From: Fibrobacter sp.
GTDB taxonomy: Bacteria > Fibrobacterota > Fibrobacteria > Fibrobacterales > Fibrobacteraceae
DNA length: 64,000 nt
Direction: 5' to 3'
NCBI GenBank assembly: GCA_017412605.1
Contig: JAFPWY010000007.1
Location: 180,239-244,238, forward strand
The stretch's first letter is position 1; the number at the start of each line of letters is the position of its first letter. The translations under genes and the position numbers were made by a program. Below, piece by piece: positions 7,129-21,232 of the stretch. The notes beneath the pieces are model-generated. The model saw only the letters and a list, made by a program, of their open reading frames with translations. It was not told where the DNA came from and did no database searches.

Positions 7129-7833
7129 CTACACCTGCATGTTTTCTAGCTTCAATTTACGGCGCTGCCAGTCGGGCATACGGGTTTCCAGCAGACGATA
7201 GAACTTTTTATCGTGGTTCGGGTATTTCAGGTGACACAATTCATGCACCACAACATACTCGATGCATTCCTTCGGGGCGGCAATCAACTTTGTATTTAAG
7301 GTCAATATACCGCCTTTAGAGAGCGAACCCCAGCGGGTTTTCATGTCGCGGATCTGCAGGCGAGGAGACTTAGAAGAATGCGAAAAACGAGCCATACAAG
7401 CCAAAAAAACATTCTCGAACTGCACCTTAGCACGCTCACGCAACCATTCATCAAGAAGTTTCTTCACAGTTGCGGGGCGAACATCCGCAGAAATAACCCT
7501 AATGAACCCGCCATCGATTTTCACCAAGCGTTCTTTATCTTTTTCGATTTTTAATCGATAACGGCGCCCCAAATACAAGTGTGTCTCGCCACCAAGATAT
7601 TGCCTTGGAGGAGGCGCTTTAGGAAATTTTGCGAACCAGTCCTGCTTTTCAACAATCCACGGAGCCTTTTTCTGCACCTTCTGCGCGATTGCTTCGAGCT
7701 TCGCCCCCTGCGGAGCCCGCACCTGCACGGCACTATCGGGCATTACAGAGATTTCCAGTGTCTTGCGACGGCAAAATTCAACCTCGTATACAATCTCGCG
7801 GTCTCCATATTTAACAACGTTCAGCTCATTCAT
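7129..7833 (-). CDS. M48/YgjP-like (DUF45) zinc metallopeptidase associated with type I RM
   Basis: MKTRWGS, YVVVHELCHL (HExxH), HDKKFY. ATG at 7833 overlaps the hsdR stop. Confidence 0.9.
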   Translation of the reverse strand: MNELNVVKYGDREIVYEVEFCRRKTLEISVMPDSAVQVRAPQGAKLEAIAQKVQKKAPWIVEKQDWFAKFPKAPPPRQYLGGETHLYLGRRYRLKIEKDKERLVKIDGGFIRVISADVRPATVKKLLDEWLRERAKVQFENVFLACMARFSHSSKSPRLQIRDMKTRWGSLSKGGILTLNTKLIAAPKECIEYVVVHELCHLKYPNHDKKFYRLLETRMPDWQRRKLKLENMQV

Positions 7834-10800
7834 GCGAACGCCGCCTTGCCACATTCATGATTTTCTCTTCCAGGGAATCAATGTCCGCATTCGTCCAGTC
7901 AAAACGTTCCCGGACACAAATATCATCGAACAGGAGGTCATCTAGTTCGTTTCGCACTCTGTTTTGTGCGTCCGGATCGTTCCAGAATTGCACCTTGTGA
8001 TGTTTTTTCAGCGCTTCAATAACGAATAAGGCTGTTTCTACGGCAAGCCGTTTGGCTTCTGCCGTATCGCACTTGTTTCCATACAAGAACGCTGTCAGTG
8101 CGACACCATAGTATGCGGCGGCATCTTCGTTTTCGCTGATTTCTGCCGGAACGTCATCACGTTTCTTGCTTTTGAAATTTTCCTCCAATCCTTTCACCTT
8201 GGAGAGATATTCATCTTCCGAAATCTTACCCGCCTGGAAACTGTCGATGACATCCTGAATCATCTTCGAGAATTTCTCGTAGAAGGCGGGATCTTCTTCC
8301 ATCTTTTCGGTTGCGGTTTTCTTGAGCATGTGCGCTATTGTATCAGCACTCGCCGCCTTGCCACGAGCATCATAGCTGCCTTTATCATCACTCAATATCT
8401 GGGTAAACTTCGGATCCAAAATATTCACAGGTGCTACAGTCTGCACCACATTATCCGACTGGATGTGCGTATCGAGCAACTTCTTGATTTTCGGTTCATA
8501 CTCGCTGTAGTCCACATCGTCGGCATAGCGGTGCTTTACAGACACGCGCATGTCCGAGAACATCTTGAACTCCCTGCGAAGCCGCGTCATATCTTCAGCT
8601 GGGGTCTTTTCCAGGAACTTCTGCGACGACATCGCGATACTCAGGCACTTTCCGAAATCTCGCAGGGCCTTGTAGAAATCGTTACGGCGTTTTTCATCGG
8701 CCAAGTGGCGTTCCATCTGTTCGGGGTCAGCCTTGTTCTTGACACCCCTGAAAACGTCCCACAGATTAGAGCGCAACTGCGGCAACTTGTCCACAAGTTC
8801 CGACACATCGGTCAGCAAGCCTTCCAAATCTTCGGGGTCAAAACCTTCCAGCGCCTTGTACATCACAAGCGCCGTATCTAGGTTGTCGCGAACGTTGGCG
8901 TAATCTACGATATAACCGAAATCCTTCTTCTTGCCGTTTTCCTCAAACAAGCGATTCACGCGCGCAATCGCCTGCAACAACGTATGTTCCTTGAGCGTGC
9001 GGCAAAGATACAGAACTGTGTTGCGTTCGGCATCAAAGCCCGTCAGCAACTTGTCACAGACAATCAGGATTTCCGGCTTACCTGGGCCCTTGAAACCATC
9101 AATAATCGACTTATTATACGAATCCTCGTCGCCATAGCGATCCATCATCTTTGTCCAGAATTTCGTCACTCGGCTAGTCGGTTCTTCGCCCACTTCCGAA
9201 TAGCCTTCGCGCTCATCGGGGCCCGAAATGATGACTTCAGAACTCACATGGCCAATTTCATCCAAGAATTCATGGTACAGAATAGCCGTTTCCTTGCTCG
9301 GTGCGACAAGTTGAGCCTTGAACGGAGTATCCTTCCAGTTTGCACGGAAATGTTCACTGATGTCAAACGCACGCATATACACGACACGTTCCGCCTTGTT
9401 CAGCATCTCGGCCCGTGCATATTTCTTCTTAAGATCGGCCTTCTGCTTGTCCGAAAGACCTGCCGTAAAGCGTTCAAACCAAAGGTCAATTGCAGCCTTG
9501 TCCTGTTTGAGTTCCGCATGGCGTCCCTCGTAAAGCAAAGGCACCACGGCGCCATCTTCGTTCGCTTGCCGGATAGTGTAACTCGGCTTGAGCATCCCGC
9601 CGAACTTGCCGAAACTGTTCTTTTCCTTCTTCATTAGCGGCGTGCCCGTAAAGCCGATATAGCAGGCATTCGGAAGCATCTGTTTCATACGCGCATGCAA
9701 GCTCTTGTATTGCGTACGGTGCGCTTCGTCCACTAGCAAAAAAATGTTGTTTGATTTTTCAACGTACTGGCGTTTGTTCAGCGCCTTGTCGAACTTGTTG
9801 ATAACAGTCGTTATCACGGCAGAATTGTCCGACGCCATAAGGTTGAGCAAATTTTCGCCCGAGGTCGCCTTGATGACCTCCGCACCACAATTTTTGAAGG
9901 TGTCGCATATTTGCGAATCCAATTCCTTGCGGTCGGTAACTAACACGACTCGCGGATTTTTGATATTACAATCGGGGTCATACGTCGAATCCAGCACGAT
10001 TCCGCGAGCAAGCATCACCATCGAAAGTGATTTACCTGAGCCCTGTGTGTGCCACACCAAGCCGCCCTTGCGCTTATTTTCGTTACCAATATTCCGAATA
10101 CGTTTTAACGCCGAATGGACCACAAAGAATTGCTGGTAGCGGGCAATCTTCTTTATTCCCTCATCGAACAGGGTAAAGCGATAGGCGATTTCAAGCAGGC
10201 GTTCAGGCTTGCACAGGCAATAAATCAGCCTGTCCTGTTCCGTCACTACACGCTTTGTCTGCGGATTATTCTTACGGAACGGCGCCAGTTTCGGCACCGA
10301 GAAAATCCTATCTTCATCTTCGGCAGAGACCTTTTTGTTAATCGCAGCTTCGATTTCCTTATCCTTGATTTCAAGCTCGTGCCAAAGGCTCCAGAACTTT
10401 TCGGGAGTCCCTACGGTGGAATAAGTCGCCGCATTCATGCTCACCGACAAAAGCGCCTGGCAAAAAACGAACAATCCCGGAATATATTCGTCGCCTTGAT
10501 TGCGAATCATCTGGGAAATGCCCTGTTTGATTCCTTCTTCGGGAGACTTATTCTCGATGACTGCAAACGGGATTCCGTTCACAAACAGCACGATATCAGG
10601 GATAACACGGGCATTGGATTTCGAGCATTCCACATCAAATTCGGCAACCGCATGGAACACATTGTTCGCCGGTTCCTGCCAGTCGATATAGCGAATGTCG
10701 TAACTGCGCTTGTCGCCCTCGACAGATTCCTCTTCGGATTGCGGGAGCGTGAGCAGGTCATATATCTTTGCATTCGTACGCACCAGACCATCGTACTGCA

Positions 10801-11053
10801 TGTTCTTGAGTTTCAGGATTGCATTGCGCAAATTCTCTTCGCTAAAGTCACGACGGACACCCTTGTGCGTAAATGAGTTCAACTTACGCAACTGCGAGAG
10901 CAGAATATCTTCGAGCAACACATTGGCAAGCTTGTCCTTACGCTCCAATGTCACCTCTTCGGGCGTAAGCGGCTTGAACCCGAGATTCGCCAGCAGCCGC
11001 ATCGCCGGAATCTGCGATGTCGGAATTTCTCTGTAATCAGGCTGTTGTTGCAT
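7826..11053 (-). CDS. hsdR: type I restriction endonuclease subunit R
   Basis: PDIVLFVNGIPFAVIENK nuclease motif, WHTQGSGKS Walker A, DEAHR, GFTGTP, DKLLTGFD, LLQAIARVNR. Confidence 0.97.
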   Translation of the reverse strand: MQQQPDYREIPTSQIPAMRLLANLGFKPLTPEEVTLERKDKLANVLLEDILLSQLRKLNSFTHKGVRRDFSEENLRNAILKLKNMQYDGLVRTNAKIYDLLTLPQSEEESVEGDKRSYDIRYIDWQEPANNVFHAVAEFDVECSKSNARVIPDIVLFVNGIPFAVIENKSPEEGIKQGISQMIRNQGDEYIPGLFVFCQALLSVSMNAATYSTVGTPEKFWSLWHELEIKDKEIEAAINKKVSAEDEDRIFSVPKLAPFRKNNPQTKRVVTEQDRLIYCLCKPERLLEIAYRFTLFDEGIKKIARYQQFFVVHSALKRIRNIGNENKRKGGLVWHTQGSGKSLSMVMLARGIVLDSTYDPDCNIKNPRVVLVTDRKELDSQICDTFKNCGAEVIKATSGENLLNLMASDNSAVITTVINKFDKALNKRQYVEKSNNIFLLVDEAHRTQYKSLHARMKQMLPNACYIGFTGTPLMKKEKNSFGKFGGMLKPSYTIRQANEDGAVVPLLYEGRHAELKQDKAAIDLWFERFTAGLSDKQKADLKKKYARAEMLNKAERVVYMRAFDISEHFRANWKDTPFKAQLVAPSKETAILYHEFLDEIGHVSSEVIISGPDEREGYSEVGEEPTSRVTKFWTKMMDRYGDEDSYNKSIIDGFKGPGKPEILIVCDKLLTGFDAERNTVLYLCRTLKEHTLLQAIARVNRLFEENGKKKDFGYIVDYANVRDNLDTALVMYKALEGFDPEDLEGLLTDVSELVDKLPQLRSNLWDVFRGVKNKADPEQMERHLADEKRRNDFYKALRDFGKCLSIAMSSQKFLEKTPAEDMTRLRREFKMFSDMRVSVKHRYADDVDYSEYEPKIKKLLDTHIQSDNVVQTVAPVNILDPKFTQILSDDKGSYDARGKAASADTIAHMLKKTATEKMEEDPAFYEKFSKMIQDVIDSFQAGKISEDEYLSKVKGLEENFKSKKRDDVPAEISENEDAAAYYGVALTAFLYGNKCDTAEAKRLAVETALFVIEALKKHHKVQFWNDPDAQNRVRNELDDLLFDDICVRERFDWTNADIDSLEEKIMNVARRRSHE

Positions 11054-11066
11054 AGATTACCTCGTT

Positions 11067-11091
11067 GTCATCCCTGCAAATGCGAGAATTC
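11067..11091. repeat. degenerate REP-like palindrome upstream of hsdR
   Basis: GTCATCCCTGCAAATGCGAGAATTC resembles the GTCATYCCCGCGAARGCGGGAATCY palindrome family. Confidence 0.4.
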
Positions 11092-11162
11092 TTTTCAATG
11101 TCACAATTGGAGATGCAGTCTTGAAATTGTCAAAATCTTTTCTTCTTACAATCTTTTGAAAT

Positions 11163-12428
11163 TCAAATAGATCCATCTACGTCATCATTATTATTTGTAT
11201 CTTCATCATTCGCGCCTAATATTTCAGGATAACCTAAATCTCTTTGCATTTCCAAATCATCAAATCCATGTCTTGAATTCTTTAGTTTTGATTCATAAGA
11301 TGGAACGACAAGAGAATTAGTTAGGCGTTCTCCTAAATGATTTAAAAAACCAAGTCTTTCTGTACTGGGTGAGCATTTTGAAAATTCACTTATTCCTGAC
11401 CATGCTTCATATTCAGGCATTCTTATTGATTGTATAATATCTATAGCAGGTTTAAATGAATCCGTTAATCCCCTTACAGCTGAGAACGAGTCTAATACTC
11501 TTTCTGGGAAAATAGACGCTTTTAATGAAAGTCCAACCTCATCAATTGTTCTTTCCGCTGTATTTTTCTTTTCTTGTTCTGTGATATCAACTTTGTCTAA
11601 TTTAGCGATCGCATCGTTGAGAATTTTTTGCATTTCCTCGCATTTTTTCAAACATTCTTCACATTCATTTTGGGGAATAATTCGATTATGTGCAACATCA
11701 CACCGATATTCATATAATTTTTCCCAATTAGACTTAAATTTTTCTGAATCGCAATCAACGAGGACGTTGAAATATCTATCCCAATTGTTTTTTGGAATAA
11801 ACAATCTTAATTCCTTCTTTTCTTCTTCCGTAATCTCTTTATCGATACATTTTTTTAATTCGTCAACTATGCTACCACTCTTATCAGCATAAGGGATTGT
11901 TAGAAAATAAGAGAGTTGAATGAAATCAAGATGATAAAGACAATCATTATTCCATTTATATTCACCTTTTACAGTATTTTTTACATCTTGAGGTGTTGCT
12001 TCATACCATTTCATTCCCAAAGTTTCAAGCATAAATTTGGAAACCAATTTACGGATAGAATTTTCTAATGTATAAATATTTGAGTACAGTTTTTCGGAAC
12101 GATTTTTAGCAAAGTCATTTCGAAGTTCAAGAATTGCAATATTTTTCTGATTTTCATCTTTAATATTGCTAATTACCTGACGAAACATTTTTAATAATTT
12201 TGTGGGCTCGTTATCCGAATCAGATGAAAAAGTAATAGCATAAACAACACCTTCGGAATCTTTAGTCTTCTTTTCCGATATTTTGATCTTACTTTGTTCA
12301 TTTTCATAAGATAATGTGTCTTTGACTAAAGATAAGTCTGATGCGTCCAAGAACGACCTCAATTTCGCCTTGCTTTTGCATGTAACACACTTAGAGCTTA
12401 CTGAAAAAATGTATTCGATTTCTTTCAT
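11163..12428 (-). CDS. HEPN-domain protein (putative RNase effector)
   Basis: IYTLENSIRKLV..DFIQL..NWDRYF..WEKLYEYRCDVAHN: R-x4-H motif in a helical domain; AT-rich. Confidence 0.7.
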   Translation of the reverse strand: MKEIEYIFSVSSKCVTCKSKAKLRSFLDASDLSLVKDTLSYENEQSKIKISEKKTKDSEGVVYAITFSSDSDNEPTKLLKMFRQVISNIKDENQKNIAILELRNDFAKNRSEKLYSNIYTLENSIRKLVSKFMLETLGMKWYEATPQDVKNTVKGEYKWNNDCLYHLDFIQLSYFLTIPYADKSGSIVDELKKCIDKEITEEEKKELRLFIPKNNWDRYFNVLVDCDSEKFKSNWEKLYEYRCDVAHNRIIPQNECEECLKKCEEMQKILNDAIAKLDKVDITEQEKKNTAERTIDEVGLSLKASIFPERVLDSFSAVRGLTDSFKPAIDIIQSIRMPEYEAWSGISEFSKCSPSTERLGFLNHLGERLTNSLVVPSYESKLKNSRHGFDDLEMQRDLGYPEILGANDEDTNNNDDVDGSI

Positions 12429-12441
12429 GTCACACCTGCCT

Positions 12442-12522
12442 TTATTTTTCTCAACACTGTTCGGTAAGAAATTTTTGCATCAAACTTTGTTTCTGCCTTT
12501 TGAAATTCATAGATTGTTGCAT
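12442..12522 (-). pseudogene. decayed copy of the hsdS 3' end (81 bp)
   Basis: Translates MQQSMNFKRQKQSLMQKFLTEQC*EK* versus HsdS C-terminus MQQLENYKKQKQGLMQKLLTGQWRVK*; 61/81 nt identical to 14068-14148 by manual gap-free alignment. Confidence 0.85.
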
Positions 12523-12532
12523 AATTGAGCCC

Positions 12533-13294
12533 TTAAAAATCTTTTATATCAATAAAATTATAACCACGCAGCAATAGAACATTTAATTTCAAACACAAAT
12601 TATGATTGTTCTTCCATATTTCATCAACAGTAGAGATTGGTAAGCCTATAGACAAGTTATCATTGCAAAAGAGTTTAAATTCATTCTCTGATTTATCAAT
12701 CCATTCATAGGTCCATTCTGCCTGAGCATTTCCCATAGGAGTTGGATAAATACGAACCTTGCTCCGTTCAGGAATGAATTTCTTCAATTTAAGATACATC
12801 GCTCTTGTTTTATTATCCATCATTCTCTTTTCCACCTCTTCAAATATCATAAAATGATTGCCATATTCCGTTCGATACGGGAAACTATATTGTCGCCTAT
12901 CTCTATCTAGGCAAACGCCAACGAGGTTAATCGAAGGTTCAGTATTTACAGCAGCAATAAGATTGCCAGAAACCACAATTGGTACAACTTGAACATCTAT
13001 TTTGGGAGAAACCAAATCAAGAATATGTGTAAAAACACACTTCTTTATTTCTTCAGCATCAACATTAGGTGCAAAACCTGAAGCAACCCTTAAGCCATTT
13101 ATCTTTTTTTCAGCCACACCTATTAACAATGTTCCACCGTATGTATTGGCGAAAGCAGCCAAATCGATAGCGATATTATCAGGTTCTTTGAGATTAAACA
13201 TCTGCTTATAATCCCAATGAATTCCTTCTGGAGTCTCGCCCATGCGGATGAGACTTTCAAAATCTTGCGCAGTTTTAAAAGGTTTGTAAAGCAT
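12533..13294 (-). CDS. Schlafen/AlbA_2-domain protein with unknown C-terminal domain
   Basis: GETPEGIHWDYK..DLAAFANTYGGTLLIGVAE is a typical AlbA_2 signature. Confidence 0.8.
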   Translation of the reverse strand: MLYKPFKTAQDFESLIRMGETPEGIHWDYKQMFNLKEPDNIAIDLAAFANTYGGTLLIGVAEKKINGLRVASGFAPNVDAEEIKKCVFTHILDLVSPKIDVQVVPIVVSGNLIAAVNTEPSINLVGVCLDRDRRQYSFPYRTEYGNHFMIFEEVEKRMMDNKTRAMYLKLKKFIPERSKVRIYPTPMGNAQAEWTYEWIDKSENEFKLFCNDNLSIGLPISTVDEIWKNNHNLCLKLNVLLLRGYNFIDIKDF

Positions 13295-13296
13295 AA

Positions 13297-14058
13297 TTAA
13301 AACACTGTTTTTATAATAGAATCAACACCTTTTATCATCTCTTCAACATCTTCTTGCGTTGGCTCCCGTTTTGAATCATGATCGCACAAATTTCTGATAT
13401 CTCCAAGATGCTGAATTTTCCGAAAAATGATTAAATCGTACACATTTCCTGCCTTTAAAGCATCATTTAAAGGTGATATTGTATCTTTTTTGCAGGTCAA
13501 ATTATGATTCTTTAAAACTTGCGATAAATGTCTTTCTAAAACAACTCCAGCCATAGCTCCCGCTGCTCGCATAAACTTATTTTTGTTCAAAAGTCTCGCT
13601 GCATCAAGTTCATTGTCAAACAAGTCTGCTTGAACAAACTGCTGAATATCAAACAAGGAACTTTCAAATCGAGATTGAACTGATTTTAAAATATATAGCT
13701 GTTGCTTGAATTTCGGTATCGCATTTTTTTCTTCAAAAGAATCGTAAGGGAATAATTCAGGATTCTCTAGAGCATCAAGATAGTCTTTTATTTGGTAATT
13801 TTGAGAAGTTATTTTCTTTCTGTTTGAAGGAACTTCATAATATGATTTAAAATCATTCAAACGATCTGGTAATAATTGTTTAATGACAATCAATGATTCA
13901 GAATACCATGGCTGATATCCTGTACAAAAACAAAGGTCGTTTTTATTTAGCTCTCTGCGATCAATAGGTTCACATTCATTACAAATCGCTTTATACAGAG
14001 CGTCACCCAGCGAAATCAATCGGCTTAAATCGCTTTTGTACTTTTCTAAATTTGTCAT
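13297..14058 (-). CDS. HEPN-like (DUF4145-like) protein
   Basis: C-terminal AAGAMAGVVLERHL..LNDALK..LGDIRNLCDH (R-x4-H). Confidence 0.65.
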   Translation of the reverse strand: MTNLEKYKSDLSRLISLGDALYKAICNECEPIDRRELNKNDLCFCTGYQPWYSESLIVIKQLLPDRLNDFKSYYEVPSNRKKITSQNYQIKDYLDALENPELFPYDSFEEKNAIPKFKQQLYILKSVQSRFESSLFDIQQFVQADLFDNELDAARLLNKNKFMRAAGAMAGVVLERHLSQVLKNHNLTCKKDTISPLNDALKAGNVYDLIIFRKIQHLGDIRNLCDHDSKREPTQEDVEEMIKGVDSIIKTVF

Positions 14059-14067
14059 ACAATTCCC

Positions 14068-15231
14068 TTATTTAACTCGCCATTGCCCGGTGAGGAGTTT
14101 TTGCATCAAGCCTTGTTTCTGCTTTTTGTAATTTTCAAGTTGCTGCATGAGAAGCGTACTTTCTTGATTCATTGTATTTAAAACAGAGACAATTTTCTGT
14201 TGTTTCTTTAAATCAAACTTTGGAATTTTGATTTTACATAAATCACCAAATCCAACTGTTTCACGAACGCTTCCTTGAGCACTATTTTTTATGCGTTGTT
14301 TAGCTTCGCTAGAATTAAGCCAATGTAAAAGAAAATCAGAATCAAGTTGCTTTTGATCTCCGATTTCAAATACAGTATACATTGGACTGATTACAGCCTC
14401 TTTCCAATCGTTTAATCGTGCTATAGACCCAACATTTATTCTTGACGGATTGTATGCATATTGTCCTAAACGAACAATCTTGTAATTAGATAGGTTTTCG
14501 CTAGCAACTTTTCTATCAAATTGTTCTTCTGGCAAGACAAAACCCTTGCTGTTACTAACGCTTAATACCTGTTGAATTTTTTCATCTTTATTTCTTTCTG
14601 AAACTTCCGTCAAAAATGTTCCTAATTCAGCATATGCATCACTCGTTATTGAAGTGGCTAAGAAACAAGCATAGGAATTTTCTTTCGCTTCGACGAGTTT
14701 TTCCATTTTTTCAATGGCGGAGTCCCAGACTGAAAGCGTCGCCGCAATCTTCTTCTGTTCTTCAATCGGAGGCAAATCTAATGGTATCTTTTTGATAATT
14801 TCTGCACTTAAATTCTTTTGCCCTCCATCATTGCTCAAATTTCGAATATTTTCATAATGGAATAAAAAATATTGAAACAAATAAGGAGTCAACACTTCGT
14901 CTTCTTTCAAATGAAATGCTGCACAAGCTTGATTGATTGTCGCATCTATATCAAGAATAGCAACTTGTCCCCTAGTTTTTCCCTGCCCATACATAGCCAT
15001 CAACAATGTTCCTTTTGGAACAATCTTTGCAGAAGACTCATTTACACCTAATTCCGTAATATACTCATCTACCTGATCTTTTGAAATATGCCCGTTTTGA
15101 ATTTGAGCGGTTTTCACCCAAGGAATATTGCCATTCCAATATTCAGATTGCGTCCTCAAAGGTGTACCACCAGATGTCACTTTGGCGACATCCCCCAATT
15201 TCACTTTTTTCCATCCATTAGGCAGCATCAT
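14068..15231 (-). CDS. hsdS: type I RM specificity subunit S (two TRDs)
   Basis: LPNGWKKVKLGDV, SGGTP, IPWVKT, LPPIEEQKKIA, second TRD, KQKQGLMQKLLTG terminus. Confidence 0.95.
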   Translation of the reverse strand: MMLPNGWKKVKLGDVAKVTSGGTPLRTQSEYWNGNIPWVKTAQIQNGHISKDQVDEYITELGVNESSAKIVPKGTLLMAMYGQGKTRGQVAILDIDATINQACAAFHLKEDEVLTPYLFQYFLFHYENIRNLSNDGGQKNLSAEIIKKIPLDLPPIEEQKKIAATLSVWDSAIEKMEKLVEAKENSYACFLATSITSDAYAELGTFLTEVSERNKDEKIQQVLSVSNSKGFVLPEEQFDRKVASENLSNYKIVRLGQYAYNPSRINVGSIARLNDWKEAVISPMYTVFEIGDQKQLDSDFLLHWLNSSEAKQRIKNSAQGSVRETVGFGDLCKIKIPKFDLKKQQKIVSVLNTMNQESTLLMQQLENYKKQKQGLMQKLLTGQWRVK

Positions 15232-17290
15232 TCTTTACTCCTAAAATCTTATTTATAGTTCTAATCAAATAATGAAGTGAGAAAACACTTGGTGACAATG
15301 GGCGCTCAGCCTCATTGAACTCCCTTTTTGCCTCGTTCAATAGCCGTTCTAAGAATTCTTTTTCTTTCTCTAAACGGTTATGGTTTTCATATCTCTTTTC
15401 AATCGCTTTTCTCAATGTGCTATTTCGATCTCGCTTAACGCCTTTGTATACCTCGCAAAATTTAACAACATCAACATCTGAAAAACAAAAGACATCAGAT
15501 TCGCCATATTGCATTGATATTTGAGAACAAGCAAGATTAAACCCATCGTAATCATCTCCCAACAAACGTTGGCAAAAAGCGTTTATTGCAGCGTCCCGAC
15601 GTTCACTCGTTTTATTTTTCAAAATATTACATAAAAAGGCAAGAAATTGATCATTCTTTTCCTCATATACCTTATAAGTATCTAAAAAAGGTAGTCGTTC
15701 TTTCCAATCATCCATTCGTTCATCGTCAAGTTTATCCTGTATTGATTTAACGTATGAAATCATCTTTTCTTCAAATTCTTCAGCAGTAAATTCAAATGCA
15801 TTATTCTTAGCATACCAATATATTCTATAGAACAAATCCATTATAAGAGACGGACTTTTTAAAGTTTTTGTATTTTCTATACAATTATTAAAAATTTTGA
15901 GCGCTTTATTTCCTTCGTCATCATCCAAAAAAGACCACTCAAGCATTTTCTTTAAATACGCTTCTTCTTCTCCGCCATACCATATTGAAGTCTTTATAAG
16001 GTCATTAACTTTTTTAAAATCAACTTTGTTTTCAAGCAACCATTTTTTCCATATTTGCAACCATTCATTGGCAAACGAAGACTCGTGTAAGGAAGTAAAT
16101 TTTTCCACTCCTCCAAATAATTTCTGAAAATTTTCTTCTTCATCTGGTCTCTGATTGCAAGGAGCAATAGTCCATGTAACAGCAGTTGCTTTTTCATCTA
16201 GAGGATTTGTTTGTAGTTGTAATTTCCCCTTTTTCTGGTGACGTTCCAAAGCGTCATCCATAGCCTGAGTCATGACATTTGAAATTTTATTCGGCTTGAG
16301 TAAACCTAAATAATAAGCATATTGGTACACAAAAAAATCTGCAACTAGCAATTCATTGCATTTTCTTTTTTCTAAGTTCTCCTTCGAAATGTTTTTTATA
16401 AATCTTTGAAAATCGATTAGGGAGTGTTTTAGTGAACGAAAATTCGGCACACCGGAAGCATCAAATACATTAGCAACAATCCCTCGATAGTCCTTTAAGA
16501 AATTATATGCATCATTACCTAGAATGTGGTGTTCTTCGTTAAACCAACAGTTCCAAACATCATCAAATGTCGTTTGTATTTGGAATTCTTTACCTATTAC
16601 CTTTTCCTTAGTACTTGACAAATGGTGAAGAGTCGATTTATCTTCTTGACATTTTTGTGCTTCTTCCCATCTGTCCTTATCTGCAAGCAGAATACAAGGA
16701 ACATGCAAGTGTTCCACATAGTCGTTCAGATACCCCAATAATTCAGGAAGGGGCATGTCAGCTCGTTCAACATCGTCAAAAACGACAACGAGTTTTTTAT
16801 AGTTTTTTTTATCAATTCTGATTTTCTTTAGAAAATCATTTGAAAAAAACTTTAATGATTCCCCAACAGCTCTTCCCGTTGCGATTGCGGCTGGAAGTAC
16901 TACAGATGCCGCTGGCGCACCAGCTGCGATTGCTGCCGTCCCTATCTTTGCGCCAACAGCAACTACAGCAAGATTTCCTACCAGCGACACTGCATTAGGA
17001 TGACAAAATAACTTTCTTAGCCCTAACTTTGGGCGAAAAACCTCTTGAATTTTTTTGTCAATTTCATCGCGATTTTTCAGTCCAAATAAACTTACATACA
17101 CAACCGTATATTTTACGCAGTCTGTTAGCCAATCTTTTATTTCTTTTCTATCGCCACCAAGATACTGCCTAATGAAATATGTCTTGCCAGAGCCCCAACA
17201 GCCCGTAATCAACACAGCGTAATCGGGAGACTGCTCCTCATTCAGGTAATTATTCAGGAATTCTTTAATGTGCTTGTTGCTATTCTCCAT
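15218..17290 (-). CDS. KAP-family P-loop NTPase
   Basis: YAVLITGCWGSGKTYF (Walker A), YVSLFGL, LVVVFDDVER (Walker B), KEKVIG; hydrophobic Gly/Ala insert within the NTPase domain. ATG at 17290 preferred over TTG at 17302. Confidence 0.85.
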   Translation of the reverse strand: MENSNKHIKEFLNNYLNEEQSPDYAVLITGCWGSGKTYFIRQYLGGDRKEIKDWLTDCVKYTVVYVSLFGLKNRDEIDKKIQEVFRPKLGLRKLFCHPNAVSLVGNLAVVAVGAKIGTAAIAAGAPAASVVLPAAIATGRAVGESLKFFSNDFLKKIRIDKKNYKKLVVVFDDVERADMPLPELLGYLNDYVEHLHVPCILLADKDRWEEAQKCQEDKSTLHHLSSTKEKVIGKEFQIQTTFDDVWNCWFNEEHHILGNDAYNFLKDYRGIVANVFDASGVPNFRSLKHSLIDFQRFIKNISKENLEKRKCNELLVADFFVYQYAYYLGLLKPNKISNVMTQAMDDALERHQKKGKLQLQTNPLDEKATAVTWTIAPCNQRPDEEENFQKLFGGVEKFTSLHESSFANEWLQIWKKWLLENKVDFKKVNDLIKTSIWYGGEEEAYLKKMLEWSFLDDDEGNKALKIFNNCIENTKTLKSPSLIMDLFYRIYWYAKNNAFEFTAEEFEEKMISYVKSIQDKLDDERMDDWKERLPFLDTYKVYEEKNDQFLAFLCNILKNKTSERRDAAINAFCQRLLGDDYDGFNLACSQISMQYGESDVFCFSDVDVVKFCEVYKGVKRDRNSTLRKAIEKRYENHNRLEKEKEFLERLLNEAKREFNEAERPLSPSVFSLHYLIRTINKILGVKNDAA

Positions 17291-19037
17291 CTCCGCCCCC
17301 AAATAAGTCTAGCGTTTCCGAATCTTTTTTCTTTTTCGTGCTGTTAGTAACTTTCTTAACCGATGTCTTGTTGGCGTCAACAAAACGTCCTTTCTCGTGC
17401 ACCCAGTGCCCATTCTTCGATGCACCTTCCCATACAAAGCCTAACTTTTGGAGGTCTCGCAGGATTGTCAATTTTGTTACGCCGAACATAGTCGCCAAGG
17501 CATCTTTTGATATCATAGAATTCACGCTAACAACCTGCAAAACCTTTTCGGTTCTTGATACATTCTTTTCGTTTTGAGTATCATTTAGGGCATCATTTTG
17601 ACTATCACTTTGGGTATCATTTTGAGATACATTTTGGGTATCAAACCAATATCCCTTTTTAGGCGCACCTTTCCAAACATAGCCCATTTTCTTCAGATAG
17701 CGACGAACCGTAATTTCGCTTAATTCCAGTGTTTCTGCTATGGTTTTTACAGAAACACTGTTGCTTTGAACAACAAGTTCTTTTATACGGAACGCCCGCT
17801 TTTGACTATCATTTTGGCTATCACTTTGACTATCATTTTGAGGTGCATTTTGGGTAACAATTTTGCCATTCAACTTGTTCAGCGGGAAGGTCACAACCGT
17901 ATATCCAGTCTGCTCACTCCAGAAGGGTTGGGGTGAATTTTCCGCCTTGCAAGCATCCATTATGCGCTTGATACCCGAGCCCCATTTTTCCAAATATGTA
18001 GTTTGGTATAAGACGTTCGCAAGGACTTCGTTTCGCGGGAACGATTGGTGCGACCGCTTGATAGTTTTCGGAGTCAGTTCATGTGGCAACAAACCGGGGC
18101 TTTCAATTTCTATACGGTCATCGTAAATGGCGATGCCGATAGAGCACTGGTGAATGTCGTAATCCCTATGGCAAAGGGCATTGATTAGAGCCTCACGCAA
18201 CGCAGCTACCGGAACATCGAGGTGTTCTTCCCTTTTGAGCCCCTTGATTTCACCGCTCAGGGACAGGTGCTTGAAGAAGAAGCCCATACCCGCATCCAGC
18301 AAATCAAAGAAATTGCCGTGGGCCTGCTGGTTATCGATAAAGTAGTTCTTATCGGTCCCCCGGAAGCGGGCCATCCGAAGTAGATATTCAAACGAGAACT
18401 TCTTTGAAAAAAGAAACACCGCGGCGTTCCTCACATTATCGCCATCCAACAGGTTCCATTTTTTCAGTATTACTTTAATCGGCTCATTGAGCGACCCCAC
18501 CGGAATTCGTTTTTCTTCGACGCCGAGACGCACAACCCCACGAATCGTGCCGGCGTTAAGATCCTTTATGCTATACCCTTCGGCAGTCCTCATTTCCCAT
18601 GAATACTGGTGGGGCATATTAATGCGAATCCGCTCATCAAACATATCCCTGGGCATCGCCTTGGTGACGCTCTCCAGTCTATAATATGGCTTCCCGTGGA
18701 ATGTGTATGGCTTTTGCCCATAGACCCACGGATTGAACCTCAGCACGATTACCTGGAGGTTCGGCTTGCCGGAAATATCTACATATTCAATGACGGGCGT
18801 AACTGCAGGTTCGATCCCCGCCAAAGCCTGCGCGATATCGCGGCGGGTAGATTCTGAAACAATCTGCCCGACAATATTCAAGGAGGGTGTGACACCGAAA
18901 ACGAGAACTCCGCCATCGGAATTCAAAAAGGCACATGCCGTATGCATGCCTTCACGAAGTTCACCGGTAGATTTCTTCAACTCGACATTCTTCGTCTCGT
19001 CTTTAGAAATCAGTTTTTTGAGTTCATCCAGTGTCAT
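17280..19037 (-). CDS. Schlafen/AlbA_2 + HATPase_c_4-type domain + two tandem winged HTH modules
   Basis: ETKNVELKKS, CAFLNSDGGVLVFGV, ALREALINALCHRDY, YDDRIEIESPG, RNEVLANVL, EKWGSGIKRI; two C-terminal HTH-wing repeats ending GYVWKG..GYW and GFVWEG..GHW. Confidence 0.85.
   Translation of the reverse strand: MTLDELKKLISKDETKNVELKKSTGELREGMHTACAFLNSDGGVLVFGVTPSLNIVGQIVSESTRRDIAQALAGIEPAVTPVIEYVDISGKPNLQVIVLRFNPWVYGQKPYTFHGKPYYRLESVTKAMPRDMFDERIRINMPHQYSWEMRTAEGYSIKDLNAGTIRGVVRLGVEEKRIPVGSLNEPIKVILKKWNLLDGDNVRNAAVFLFSKKFSFEYLLRMARFRGTDKNYFIDNQQAHGNFFDLLDAGMGFFFKHLSLSGEIKGLKREEHLDVPVAALREALINALCHRDYDIHQCSIGIAIYDDRIEIESPGLLPHELTPKTIKRSHQSFPRNEVLANVLYQTTYLEKWGSGIKRIMDACKAENSPQPFWSEQTGYTVVTFPLNKLNGKIVTQNAPQNDSQSDSQNDSQKRAFRIKELVVQSNSVSVKTIAETLELSEITVRRYLKKMGYVWKGAPKKGYWFDTQNVSQNDTQSDSQNDALNDTQNEKNVSRTEKVLQVVSVNSMISKDALATMFGVTKLTILRDLQKLGFVWEGASKNGHWVHEKGRFVDANKTSVKKVTNSTKKKKDSETLDLFGGGDGE
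17572..17639 (-). repeat. 12-bp coding minisatellite (QND/QSD tetrapeptides), block 2
   Basis: ACCCAAAATGTA TCTCAAAATGAT ACCCAAAGTGAT AGTCAAAATGAT GCCCTAAATGAT ACTCAAAA on the minus strand. Confidence 0.85.
17800..17855 (-). repeat. 12-bp coding minisatellite (QND/QSD tetrapeptides), block 1
   Basis: ACCCAAAATGCA CCTCAAAATGAT AGTCAAAGTGAT AGCCAAAATGAT AGTCAAAA on the minus strand. Confidence 0.85.
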
Positions 19038-19046
19038 TGAATAGCC

Positions 19047-20615
19047 TTACCCCCGCTTTATCTCCTTCAGTTTCTGGGCCATCTGCTTGCGGACTTCGGC
19101 AAGTTCCTTTTCGAGGCGGTCGATATCCTTCTGCACGGCATCCACATCGATAGGAGCTTCTTCTTCGAAGGTGTCCACATAGCGCGGGATGTTCAGGTTG
19201 AATTCATTGCCCGCAATTTCGTCGAAAGAGGCGACATGGGCGTACTTGTCCACATTCTTGCGCTTCTTGTAGGTGTTCACAATCTTCGAGATGTTCTCTT
19301 CGGAGAGCGAATTCTGCTTTTTGCCCTGCACAAATTCACGGCTTGCGTCAATGAACAGCACGTCCTTGCGCTTTGCGTTCTTGCCGCCGATTTCACGGCT
19401 GCGGTCGAATACCAGAATCGCCACGGGAATGCTCGTGGTCGGGAAAAGGTTTTCGGGGAGGCCGATTACCGCATCCAGCAGGTTTTCGCGAATCATCGCT
19501 TCGCGGATTTTGCCTTCGGAAGAACCGCGGAACAGCACGCCGTGAGGCACCACGACAACGACACGGCCTTCGCCCGCAAGGCTCGTCTCGACCATATGCG
19601 TAATGAAGGCCCAGTCACCCTTGCTTTTGGGCGGAATACCACGGAAAAAGCGCTTGTAGGGGTCACTTTCGGCATTTTCAGCGCCCCATTTGTCGAGGCT
19701 GAAAGGCGGATTCGCAACCACCACATTGAATTTCATCAACTTGTCTTTTTCGACAAGCATCGGGCTGTTGAGCGTATCGCCCCATTCAATGCGGGCGCTA
19801 TCGGTGCTGTGCAAGAACATATTCATGCGGCAAAGTGCCCATGTGCTGCCGTTTGATTCCTGACCAAACAAGGCGTAGTTGCCGCTCGGCACCTGCTTCG
19901 CACCCTGCAAAAGCAAACCACCCGCACCACATGTCGGGTCGCAAATCTTGTCGCCATCCTTCGGGGCCGCAAGTTTCGCCACGAGTTCGGTAACAACAAA
20001 CGGTGTAAAGAATTCACCCGCCTTCTTGCCCGCCTCGGCACCGAAACGTTCCAACAGATACATGTAGGTGTTGCCGATGATGTCTTCGGAAACGCGACTC
20101 GGCGACATGTCGAGTTCTTCTTTGTGGAAGTCTTCGAGCAGCGTGCGCAGACGACGGTTGCGGTCCTTCGTCTTGCCGAGATTCGGCTCGGAATTGAAGT
20201 CAATATTGCGGAACACGCCTTCAAGCTTGAGCCTGTTCTGCGTTTCAATTTTGTCGAGAACGATGTTGATTAAATCGCCGATGTTATCTGCAGTGCGGCG
20301 TTCGTAAAGGCTGTAATAGTCCGCGACAAACTTGTCGATGACCTTGCCTTTCTCGTTCTTGATTTCTACCATCGGGAGTACAAAACGTTCGCGCTCCAGT
20401 TTGCGGAGGATTCGCGCCTCGTCGCCGCCGTATTGTTTGCCATAAGCGTCGTAATGGTCGCGCCAAACATCCGACATATACTTCAAGAACAGCATCACCA
20501 GAATGTAGTCCTTGTACTGCGCCGGATCAACCGCCCCGCGGAAGGTATCGCACGCGGCCCAGGCGGCAGCGTTGATGGCATCTTGCTTGATTTTTTCGCT
20601 TTTCACTTCACTCAT
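19047..20615 (-). CDS. hsdM: type I RM methyltransferase subunit M (m6A)
   Basis: LRGAVD-like FRGAVD, GEFFTP, DPTCGAGG (motif I), VVANPPF (motif IV), GVLFRG. Confidence 0.97.
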   Translation of the reverse strand: MSEVKSEKIKQDAINAAAWAACDTFRGAVDPAQYKDYILVMLFLKYMSDVWRDHYDAYGKQYGGDEARILRKLERERFVLPMVEIKNEKGKVIDKFVADYYSLYERRTADNIGDLINIVLDKIETQNRLKLEGVFRNIDFNSEPNLGKTKDRNRRLRTLLEDFHKEELDMSPSRVSEDIIGNTYMYLLERFGAEAGKKAGEFFTPFVVTELVAKLAAPKDGDKICDPTCGAGGLLLQGAKQVPSGNYALFGQESNGSTWALCRMNMFLHSTDSARIEWGDTLNSPMLVEKDKLMKFNVVVANPPFSLDKWGAENAESDPYKRFFRGIPPKSKGDWAFITHMVETSLAGEGRVVVVVPHGVLFRGSSEGKIREAMIRENLLDAVIGLPENLFPTTSIPVAILVFDRSREIGGKNAKRKDVLFIDASREFVQGKKQNSLSEENISKIVNTYKKRKNVDKYAHVASFDEIAGNEFNLNIPRYVDTFEEEAPIDVDAVQKDIDRLEKELAEVRKQMAQKLKEIKRG

Positions 20616-21232
20616 AGCGACTCCAGATATTTTGAAATTTCCGTTTCTAAAATTAAGTTCTTTTGCTTGACAATTTCTGCCATAATCTCATGTTCTTTCC
20701 GGCCAAGTTTTACAAGGTCGGCAATAGCCTGCTGCGCATTTAAACTGGGCAACTTGATAGGCATTTGCTCCAAAACGCCCTTGCTCACCAGCGGAATGCC
20801 GGAACCCGTCGCAAACTCCTTAAAATAGGCCGCACCGTACGCCCCATTTATATACCACGCCAGGTATTCTGGCGAAACCAATTCGCGATTCAAACGGATG
20901 CGAATCATCGGGGCAACAACCAACAGTTTTTCGGTGATTTCAGGAACAACCGCCGCCATAAACGGCGTGCCACGCGAACGGAAGATAAGGTCCCCTCCCG
21001 CGGCAAAGTGTGAGTCATTTGGGTTGACGTTTTCCACGCGTTTCAGGTTCTGCAATTTCAATTCGCCCGAGTCGTCCACATCGCGCAGAAAGCACGCAAG
21101 CGTTCCCGATTCTCCAGGAACACACGTGTTGCGGAAGGGGTAACCTACCGAAAGCAGGGCAACATCGCGCAGCGATACCGTATGCGATTTCGACAAGCCA
21201 AGGGCGTTCTTTGACACATTTTCAAAGTCCAT
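20612..21232 (-). CDS. half-size (single-TRD) HsdS-like protein
   Basis: GDLIFRSRG, PEYLAWYIN, LEQMPIKLPSLNAQQAIA + coiled coil; ATGA overlap with hsdM. Confidence 0.8.
   Translation of the reverse strand: MDFENVSKNALGLSKSHTVSLRDVALLSVGYPFRNTCVPGESGTLACFLRDVDDSGELKLQNLKRVENVNPNDSHFAAGGDLIFRSRGTPFMAAVVPEITEKLLVVAPMIRIRLNRELVSPEYLAWYINGAYGAAYFKEFATGSGIPLVSKGVLEQMPIKLPSLNAQQAIADLVKLGRKEHEIMAEIVKQKNLILETEISKYLESL

Follow-up and report, generated by a model that had tools for sequence, protein, structure and literature searches.

An apparently dead hsdS 3'-end remnant as a marker of recombination history in a Fibrobacter Type I restriction-modification operon

Defence genes embedded in Type I restriction-modification (R-M) operons are described from several bacteria: prrC in the EcoprrI locus, the rlo genes of Campylobacter jejuni and tgvAB of Vibrio cholerae VPI-2. 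A "guilt by embedding" survey describes genes embedded in Type I operons and refers to "gene cassettes"; the searched text of that preprint treats which genes are embedded rather than how they were acquired, and the word "recombination" is absent from it (Payne et al., bioRxiv 10.1101/2024.01.29.577857). The nesting of candidate defence genes in Type I operons is already established, and the route by which they arrive has hardly been addressed. The operon described here lies in a 64,000-nucleotide (nt) stretch of contig JAFPWY010000007.1 (positions 180,239 to 244,238) from a Fibrobacter sp., a rumen organism; this stretch is called the window, and positions are numbered within it. Between two accessory, or cargo, genes of the operon there is an 81-nt stretch, here called the relic (12442..12522, minus strand). 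Judged by its codon changes, it is a dead, non-functional remnant of the 3' end of hsdS, the gene for the specificity subunit, and as such a recombination scar and a marker of history. The finding is a gene remnant in a defence locus, which is of a known kind, and its added value is a well-resolved recombination history.

The genes concerned are all read from the minus strand. The working hsdS (14068..15231) encodes a Type I specificity subunit of 387 amino acids (aa) that matches PF01420 (Methylase_S, E = 4e-39) in two stretches. Its last 27 codons (14068..14148) belong to the C-terminal conserved region, and 65-76 of their 81 bases are identical to the hsdS tails of other Fibrobacter loci. 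Behind hsdS are geneA (13297..14058) and geneB (12533..13294), each of 253 aa, then a 104-nt spacer (12429..12532), the 421-aa gene g421 (11163..12428) and hsdR (7826..11053). Within the spacer, positions 12442-12522 and the final 27 codons of hsdS form an ungapped alignment in which 61 of 81 bases are identical. This match had been reported in a first-pass annotation of the window and was borne out when both strands of the entire window were scanned by 81-mers, the relic scoring about 10 standard deviations (SD) over background (mean 20.1, SD 4.1, next-best 40). The translations, MQQSMNFKRQKQSLMQKFLTEQC-stop-EK-stop for the relic and MQQLENYKKQKQGLMQKLLTGQWRVK-stop for hsdS, are exactly those given there, and the terminal AAA-TAA is indeed in register in both copies; the relic carries an in-frame TGA and retains the terminal TAA. 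The longest exact run common to the two is 12 nt. According to BLAST and a tail profile, the relic is the sole extra hsdS-tail copy in the 3.5-Mb genome, and no orphan copies of the tails of the other hsdS genes were found in the same genome. Upstream of the relic there is no sequence of a target recognition domain (TRD), and the geneB stop is 10 nt away. The similarity ends at 81 nt because any two hsdS alleles cease to be alike at roughly that point. The whole spacer is probably derived from hsdS, with about 91 nt of tail (the 81-nt relic and 10 nt of probable further hsdS) and a native 13-nt hsdS-to-next-gene spacer that includes a ribosome-binding site.

The codon changes point to a pseudogene fragment. 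Compared with the working tail of the window, the relic has 10 replacement and 3 silent codon changes, plus the premature in-frame TGA. From the nine working tails used for comparison it differs at 18-29 bases, 10-13 of the codon changes being replacements and 1-6 silent, while these tails differ among themselves by a mean of 10.6 bases, 2.6 replacement and 6.4 silent codons. The relic alters 10 of the 54 columns that are invariant across the nine. Between the window and locus L045 the spacer is 75% identical, geneB is 86% identical overall and its third codon positions are 76% identical, so the divergence of the relic is close to the silent-site rate. A second form of the relic, haplotype 2 below, has an earlier stop and two indels, and an approximately 90%-identical contig of run X18 has three 1-nt deletions inside the relic. 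These are the marks of a gene remnant, namely partial similarity to a working gene and loss of coding constraint.

The relic is the tail of an hsdS that formerly stood ahead of g421, because g421 natively adjoins an intact hsdS with the same spacing and the same start. Homologues of g421 (about 75-82% at the aa level) are found directly behind an intact hsdS in L035, L036/37, L038, L043 and L051. In those five loci the distance from the hsdS stop to the ATG is 13 nt, which equals the distance from the relic TAA to g421 in the window, and the start ATGAAAGAAAT(C/A)GAATA is common to the hsdS-adjacent homologues and the window. Both parent types are extant. The order hsdS-geneA-geneB-hsdR, lacking g421, is present in L039, the orthologous locus of a Fibrobacter succinogenes metagenome-assembled genome (hsdM 96%, hsdR 89%), and in a run X15 contig whose hsdS-geneA-geneB segment matches that of the window at about 96.5% identity; the order hsdS-g421-hsdR is present in L051. 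Three other features near the joint were considered and set aside. The joint did not cut off the last ~28 codons of geneB, since the 253-aa form ending in FIDIKDF is a widespread natural allele that has other right-hand neighbours elsewhere. Chance probably accounts for the 9 nt, ATCTATGAA, that the relic has in common with the 3' end of long-form geneB. A 13-bp direct repeat, CTTTTGAAATTCA (11153-11165 and 12497-12509), which might be taken for a cassette signature, is likewise a chance occurrence; g421 homologues end differently, and independent 13-mer direct repeats spaced within 2 kb number about 31 in the window.

The joint itself, TAA(A) followed directly by GGGCTCAATTATGCA, lies 1-2 nt after the geneB stop and is identical in 10 loci from different studies. 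The identity of the joint in all copies of the relic implies one origin; the joint arose once and was later spread by homologous recombination. Beyond the window, the relic with this joint was found in L045/46, L050 and L052-L058, in combination with different hsdS alleles and different upstream cargo, and contigs of runs X9, X13 and X18 also carry it. An exact-pattern scan of JGI metagenome contigs found no relic. Contigs L027-L034 are 99.7-100% identical to the window and represent the same clone, which makes a strain-level comparison uninformative. Two haplotypes can be distinguished, haplotype 1 in the window, L050 and L055-58, and haplotype 2 in L045/46 and L052-54; they differ at about 35% of positions across the 3' two-thirds of the relic. 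Over 12429-12548, comparison of the window with L050 and L055-L057 shows haplotype 1 and the first ~250 nt of g421 to be 95-100% identical. In the window the two copies of the tail, 75% identical to each other, bracket 1.6 kb that encodes geneA and geneB only, as first described. This arrangement does not extend to all relic loci. In L045 there are four genes between hsdS and the relic, and geneB is partnered by a DUF2806 gene, not by geneA, so a two-gene cassette between two copies is the property of one haplotype and not a rule.

How the relic came to lie behind geneB can be reconstructed conditionally. It is likely that it is a non-functional hsdS tail stranded by one illegitimate joint, and that the resulting block then spread by homologous recombination. 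An ancestral segment starting about 91 nt before an hsdS stop, and comprising the hsdS tail, the 13-nt spacer and g421, would have been joined once, independently of homology, 1-2 nt after the stop of the AlbA_2-type gene, geneB. The join would have stacked two cargo modules in one operon, placing the tail-g421 segment behind geneB and stranding the hsdS tail between them. The simplest route would be homology-facilitated illegitimate recombination, with one crossover in a conserved hsdR or hsdS flank, most simply hsdR, and one non-homologous joint. Ordinary homologous recombination would then have carried the composite block of AlbA_2 gene, relic and g421 from one Fibrobacter Type I locus to another, with the stranded tail decaying at about the silent-site rate. 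The earlier suggestion that cargo had been stacked at this point holds to the extent that a module set ending in an AlbA_2 gene now precedes a module that is natively found behind hsdS; growth of the array by one relic per cassette does not follow from it.

Chance similarity and faulty assembly were considered as other sources of the repeat. The DNA is AT-rich, and the hsdS tail is rich in Lys and Gln and of low complexity, but a match about 10 SD above the background of the window and in register with the stop codon refutes chance, and the relic is no artefact of assembly, because at least 10 independent assemblies, made in different studies, contain the same sequence; the probability left to either is negligible. 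Other points do weigh against the account given above. The present sequences do not reveal the direction or the mechanics of the founding event. The length of the spacer is constant, at 102-104 nt, in all 10 relic-bearing loci, and haplotype 1 keeps 97-100% identity among loci in which identity falls to about 67% in the neighbouring 3' end of geneB. Of the tails compared, the window's own hsdS tail is the one that the relic most resembles (18-20 differences, compared with 21-29 for the others), and the two share an ATG(M)CA(A/G)CAA start, where eight other tails have AAA, AAG or GAG and two more have CAG. The constancy of the spacer, the near invariance of haplotype 1 among divergent neighbours and the retention of the native 13-nt spacer with its ribosome-binding site would be expected if the relic were kept because it is useful, as a 5' leader of g421, a promoter, a context for translation initiation or a peptide mimicking the C-terminal helix of HsdS. 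Such a role is improbable in view of the ~35% difference between the haplotypes, a frame that is broken at a separate position in each of haplotype 1, haplotype 2 and run X18, and divergence at the silent-site rate. The 104-nt spacer also gave no RNA fold signal (z = +1.31), and no sigma-70-like promoter or terminator-like site was found in it, although the sigma-70 pattern may not be that of Fibrobacter. The uniformity of haplotype 1 is preferably attributed to the recent spread of a recombination tract, with selection on the spacer as the alternative. The closeness of the relic to the window's own tail and their common ATG codon would also fit a duplication in situ, in which the hsdS tail of an hsdS-g421 operon served as the entry point for a geneA-geneB block. 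Entry would have been by Campbell-type integration of a circularised fragment bearing ~91 nt of tail or by unequal exchange between sister copies, and the two copies would be a true target duplication. It is consistent with this that in the window, L050 and L052-58 the interval from hsdS to the relic contains geneA and geneB and no other gene. Such a duplication would also leave a dead tail of the hsdS ahead of g421, and differs only in how the joint arose. It is rather unlikely, as it calls for two rare steps or for recombination through only ~91 nt of homology; the present copies share at most 12 nt of uninterrupted identity, L045 and L046 combine this joint with an interval of four genes from hsdS to the relic in which geneB has another partner, and the hsdS tails ahead of the relic in L050 and L056 do not belong to the ATG type.

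The first-pass annotation had proposed an integron-like accretion, in which the C-terminal region of hsdS is a dedicated docking site for serial insertion and each event leaves a relic of the tail. The cargo arrays are in fact modular, co-oriented and tightly packed, they differ between orthologous loci, and variation sets in 4-14 nt past the hsdS stop in all loci compared. Its remark that no integrase is visible also holds, since the 10 proteins of the operon and the 10 others encoded on its flanks within ~10 kb include no tyrosine or serine recombinase. The modular build of the arrays is outweighed by the behaviour of the relic, which is a single lineage with one common joint. In 101 Fibrobacter species genomes a hidden Markov model (HMM) of the hsdS tail found 17 working tails of this family and no independent second relic; the only short-frame match of the tail profile was the window's own relic, and none was found in the other 16 species genomes with this hsdS family. 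Nor was an independent relic found in about 12 other distinct loci that hold up to four stacked modules, and 81-mer scans of about 25 loci returned working tails and the one relic lineage only. Weak tail-HMM matches in genomes G030 and G010 are unrelated sequences that belong to no hsd locus, and a match in G065 is a working hsdS cut by the end of a contig. No att-like or shared repeat was found at the junctions, whose sequences differ, and the order of modules is inconsistent, g421 being ahead of an AlbA_2 pair in L036 and behind one in the window. The breakpoints of cargo gain and loss, which should coincide with relics, lie mostly elsewhere apart from the hsdS stop; the run X15 allele without g421 and relic breaks at ~12770, inside geneB, and at 11055, the start of hsdR. 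Repeats without long exact runs are poor substrates for excision by RecA-dependent recombination, and the two copies in the window are such substrates because they share no exact run longer than 12 nt. The copies do not have the character of attL and attR derived from a target 3' end by an integrative element, since they are 75% identical and neither geneA nor geneB encodes an integrase. A phase-variable hsdS shufflon is not indicated either, as the relic is in direct orientation, is without a TRD and has no recombinase nearby. The integron-like reading is largely refuted, and serial growth by such a mechanism is very improbable.

At least 16 distinct alleles of the operon were compared, and their cargo varies between orthologous loci. 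Loci with hsdM 95-99% and hsdR 89-92% identical at the aa level carry other genes in the slot between hsdS and hsdR, among them YhcG with RhuM, an AAA_21-methyltransferase gene, and g421 with ORF6N. The same TRD2 and tail are followed by three different cargos, g421 in L035, geneA in L039 and a 323-aa gene in L045. The window and L050 have KAP genes 95% identical and geneA 99% identical at the aa level, yet unrelated TRDs, and their right-hand switch in identity falls in the conserved tail (CR2), about 66 nt short of the hsdS stop. GeneB is a mosaic relative to L045, nt 481-762 being 97.5% identical and nt 1-480 78%. Further sharp switches in identity occur inside geneB, at the border between geneB and the relic, about 35 nt into the relic and inside g421. 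On the evidence of these switches the conserved 3' end of hsdS is a real crossover zone at which cargo and specificity are reassorted, which preserves one part of the earlier proposal that this region acts as a recombination anchor; the part that made it a dedicated docking site does not stand. The crossover zones comprise the conserved 3' end of hsdS, the 5' end of hsdR and shared cargo genes. The picture that emerges is one in which the engine of cargo turnover is frequent homologous recombination between alleles, which is normally scarless, and in which occasional illegitimate joints and deletions leave scars. Remnants of RhuM (aa 1-19 and 75-90, with an internal deletion) are present in a ~450-520-nt spacer ahead of hsdR in three loci (L023:10216-10661, L043:7763-8283 and L047:7763-8266) and are another gene scar in the same cargo slot.

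With respect to gene content, hsdM, hsdS and hsdR are all intact by Pfam and lie on one (minus) strand, as in a Type I R-M operon, and five non-RM genes are embedded among the hsd genes. HsdM (19047-20615; N6_Mtase and HsdM_N, 1e-98) is preceded by a half-hsdS (20612-21232) of 206 aa with one TRD, which is kept at 69-85% aa identity in orthologous loci. A second cargo slot, between hsdM and hsdS, contains an AlbA_2-HATPase_c_4-HTH gene (17280-19037) and a KAP NTPase (15218-17302) that matches the PADLOC candidate PDC-S49 (1e-80). This slot is as variable as that between hsdS and hsdR; in L022, L035, L036, L043, L045, L047 and L055 it often holds a DEAD-helicase-PRTase gene, a DprA-like gene with DUF3800, or SMODS with S_4TM. 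GeneB is of the AlbA_2/Schlafen type (PF04326, E = 5.7e-14). GeneA had been called HEPN-like at first; it has no Pfam match at E <= 0.01 and only a sub-threshold HEPN match (E = 0.063). The gene with a weak HEPN_Swt1 match is g421, which lies downstream of the relic, outside the two copies, and also has a weak match to PDC-M34B (4e-9). GeneA and geneB stand together behind hsdS in L039, L048, L050 and L052-58. Homologues of geneB in L043, L045, L047, L036 and L040 have two unrelated upstream partners, geneA (253/258 aa) or a 334-aa DUF2806 protein, and in one species the homologue is directly behind hsdS without a partner; the C-terminal forms are short (253 aa) or long (270-283 aa). HsdR, of 1075 aa (HSDR_N, SWI2_SNF2, T1R_D3-like), forms the right-hand conserved flank of the cargo slot and adjoins a YgjP-like gene (7129-7854). 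The flanks of the operon are housekeeping genes. The G+C content is 30-37% in cargo and hsdS, compared with 48-55% in hsdM and hsdR. By family resemblance (KAP to PDC-S49, g421 to PDC-M34B, and the AlbA_2 domains) the embedded genes are candidate phage-defence genes.

A recurrent palindrome, RGTCRCAAWTTGYGACY, was examined as a possible junction site and rejected, as it tracks ORF6N genes and also lies inside them. It represents a family of perfect palindromes whose outer arms change in step (TATGGTC..GACCATA, TGAAGTC..GACTTCA and CAAGGTC..GACCTTG). Copies are found upstream of ORF6N cargo genes and, within these genes, near +41 and/or +230-277 (L035:1712, 2485, 2620, 9313, 9386 and 9608; L036:11144 and 11439; L025:2134 and 2429; L048:5763 and 5973; L039:8669; L051:3872), with a half copy in the window at ~11085-11105 and only two copies elsewhere in the window's genome. 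The family may be an operator set for the ORF6N protein. A separate 36-nt stretch on contig 11 of G030 (L041:8047-8082) is about 89% identical to the core of the tail and encodes DLENYKKRKQGL; it lies in an unrelated 241-aa frame, far from hsd genes, and is probably a chance match.

The relic-bearing operon is intact and working-looking on both sides of the scar, and its founding joint can be traced across many alleles. For one case the locus answers the question of arrival, with homologous swapping of cargo and one traceable illegitimate joint that left a datable scar. It also gives reason for caution, in that direct repeats around cargo need not imply a cassette mechanism. More tentatively, the 3' end of hsdS with its spacer and ribosome-binding site could possibly serve as a portable homology adaptor for cargo across bacteria, with no need of an integrase. 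Cargo would move attached to the tail, crossovers inside the tail would exchange or stack it, and a tail would be stranded only when the joint falls upstream of the adaptor. If this is true, the Fibrobacter locus is a natural model for how defence genes become embedded in restriction operons.

Among known systems, integron arrays (IntI, attI, attC) resemble the window in having one-directional, tightly packed, promoterless accessory genes behind a fixed element. The window differs from them in having no integrase, no attC-like junction site and no fixed insertion point, and its relic comes from a single event. In the classical hybrids of the StySB/StySP to StySQ type, the TRDs of hsdS were reportedly reassorted by recombination in the conserved regions of the gene. 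Crossovers likewise fall in conserved parts of hsdS when the window is compared with L050, but here the crossover zone also exchanges the cargo downstream of hsdS. Homology-facilitated illegitimate recombination is said to have been described in transformable bacteria by de Vries and Wackernagel in 2002 and by Prudhomme et al. in 2002. It resembles the event proposed here in combining one homologous anchor with one non-homologous joint at an arbitrary position, and it can strand a gene fragment; it may have operated at the Fibrobacter locus between a putative donor and a putative recipient. The Type I operons with embedded defence genes named at the outset resemble the window in that co-oriented non-RM genes lie among hsdM, hsdS and hsdR and relatives differ in what the slot contains. 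Unlike the embedding survey, the window offers a scar and mosaic alleles, and these point to a route by which such genes arrive, namely homologous exchange at conserved flanks together with one illegitimate joint.

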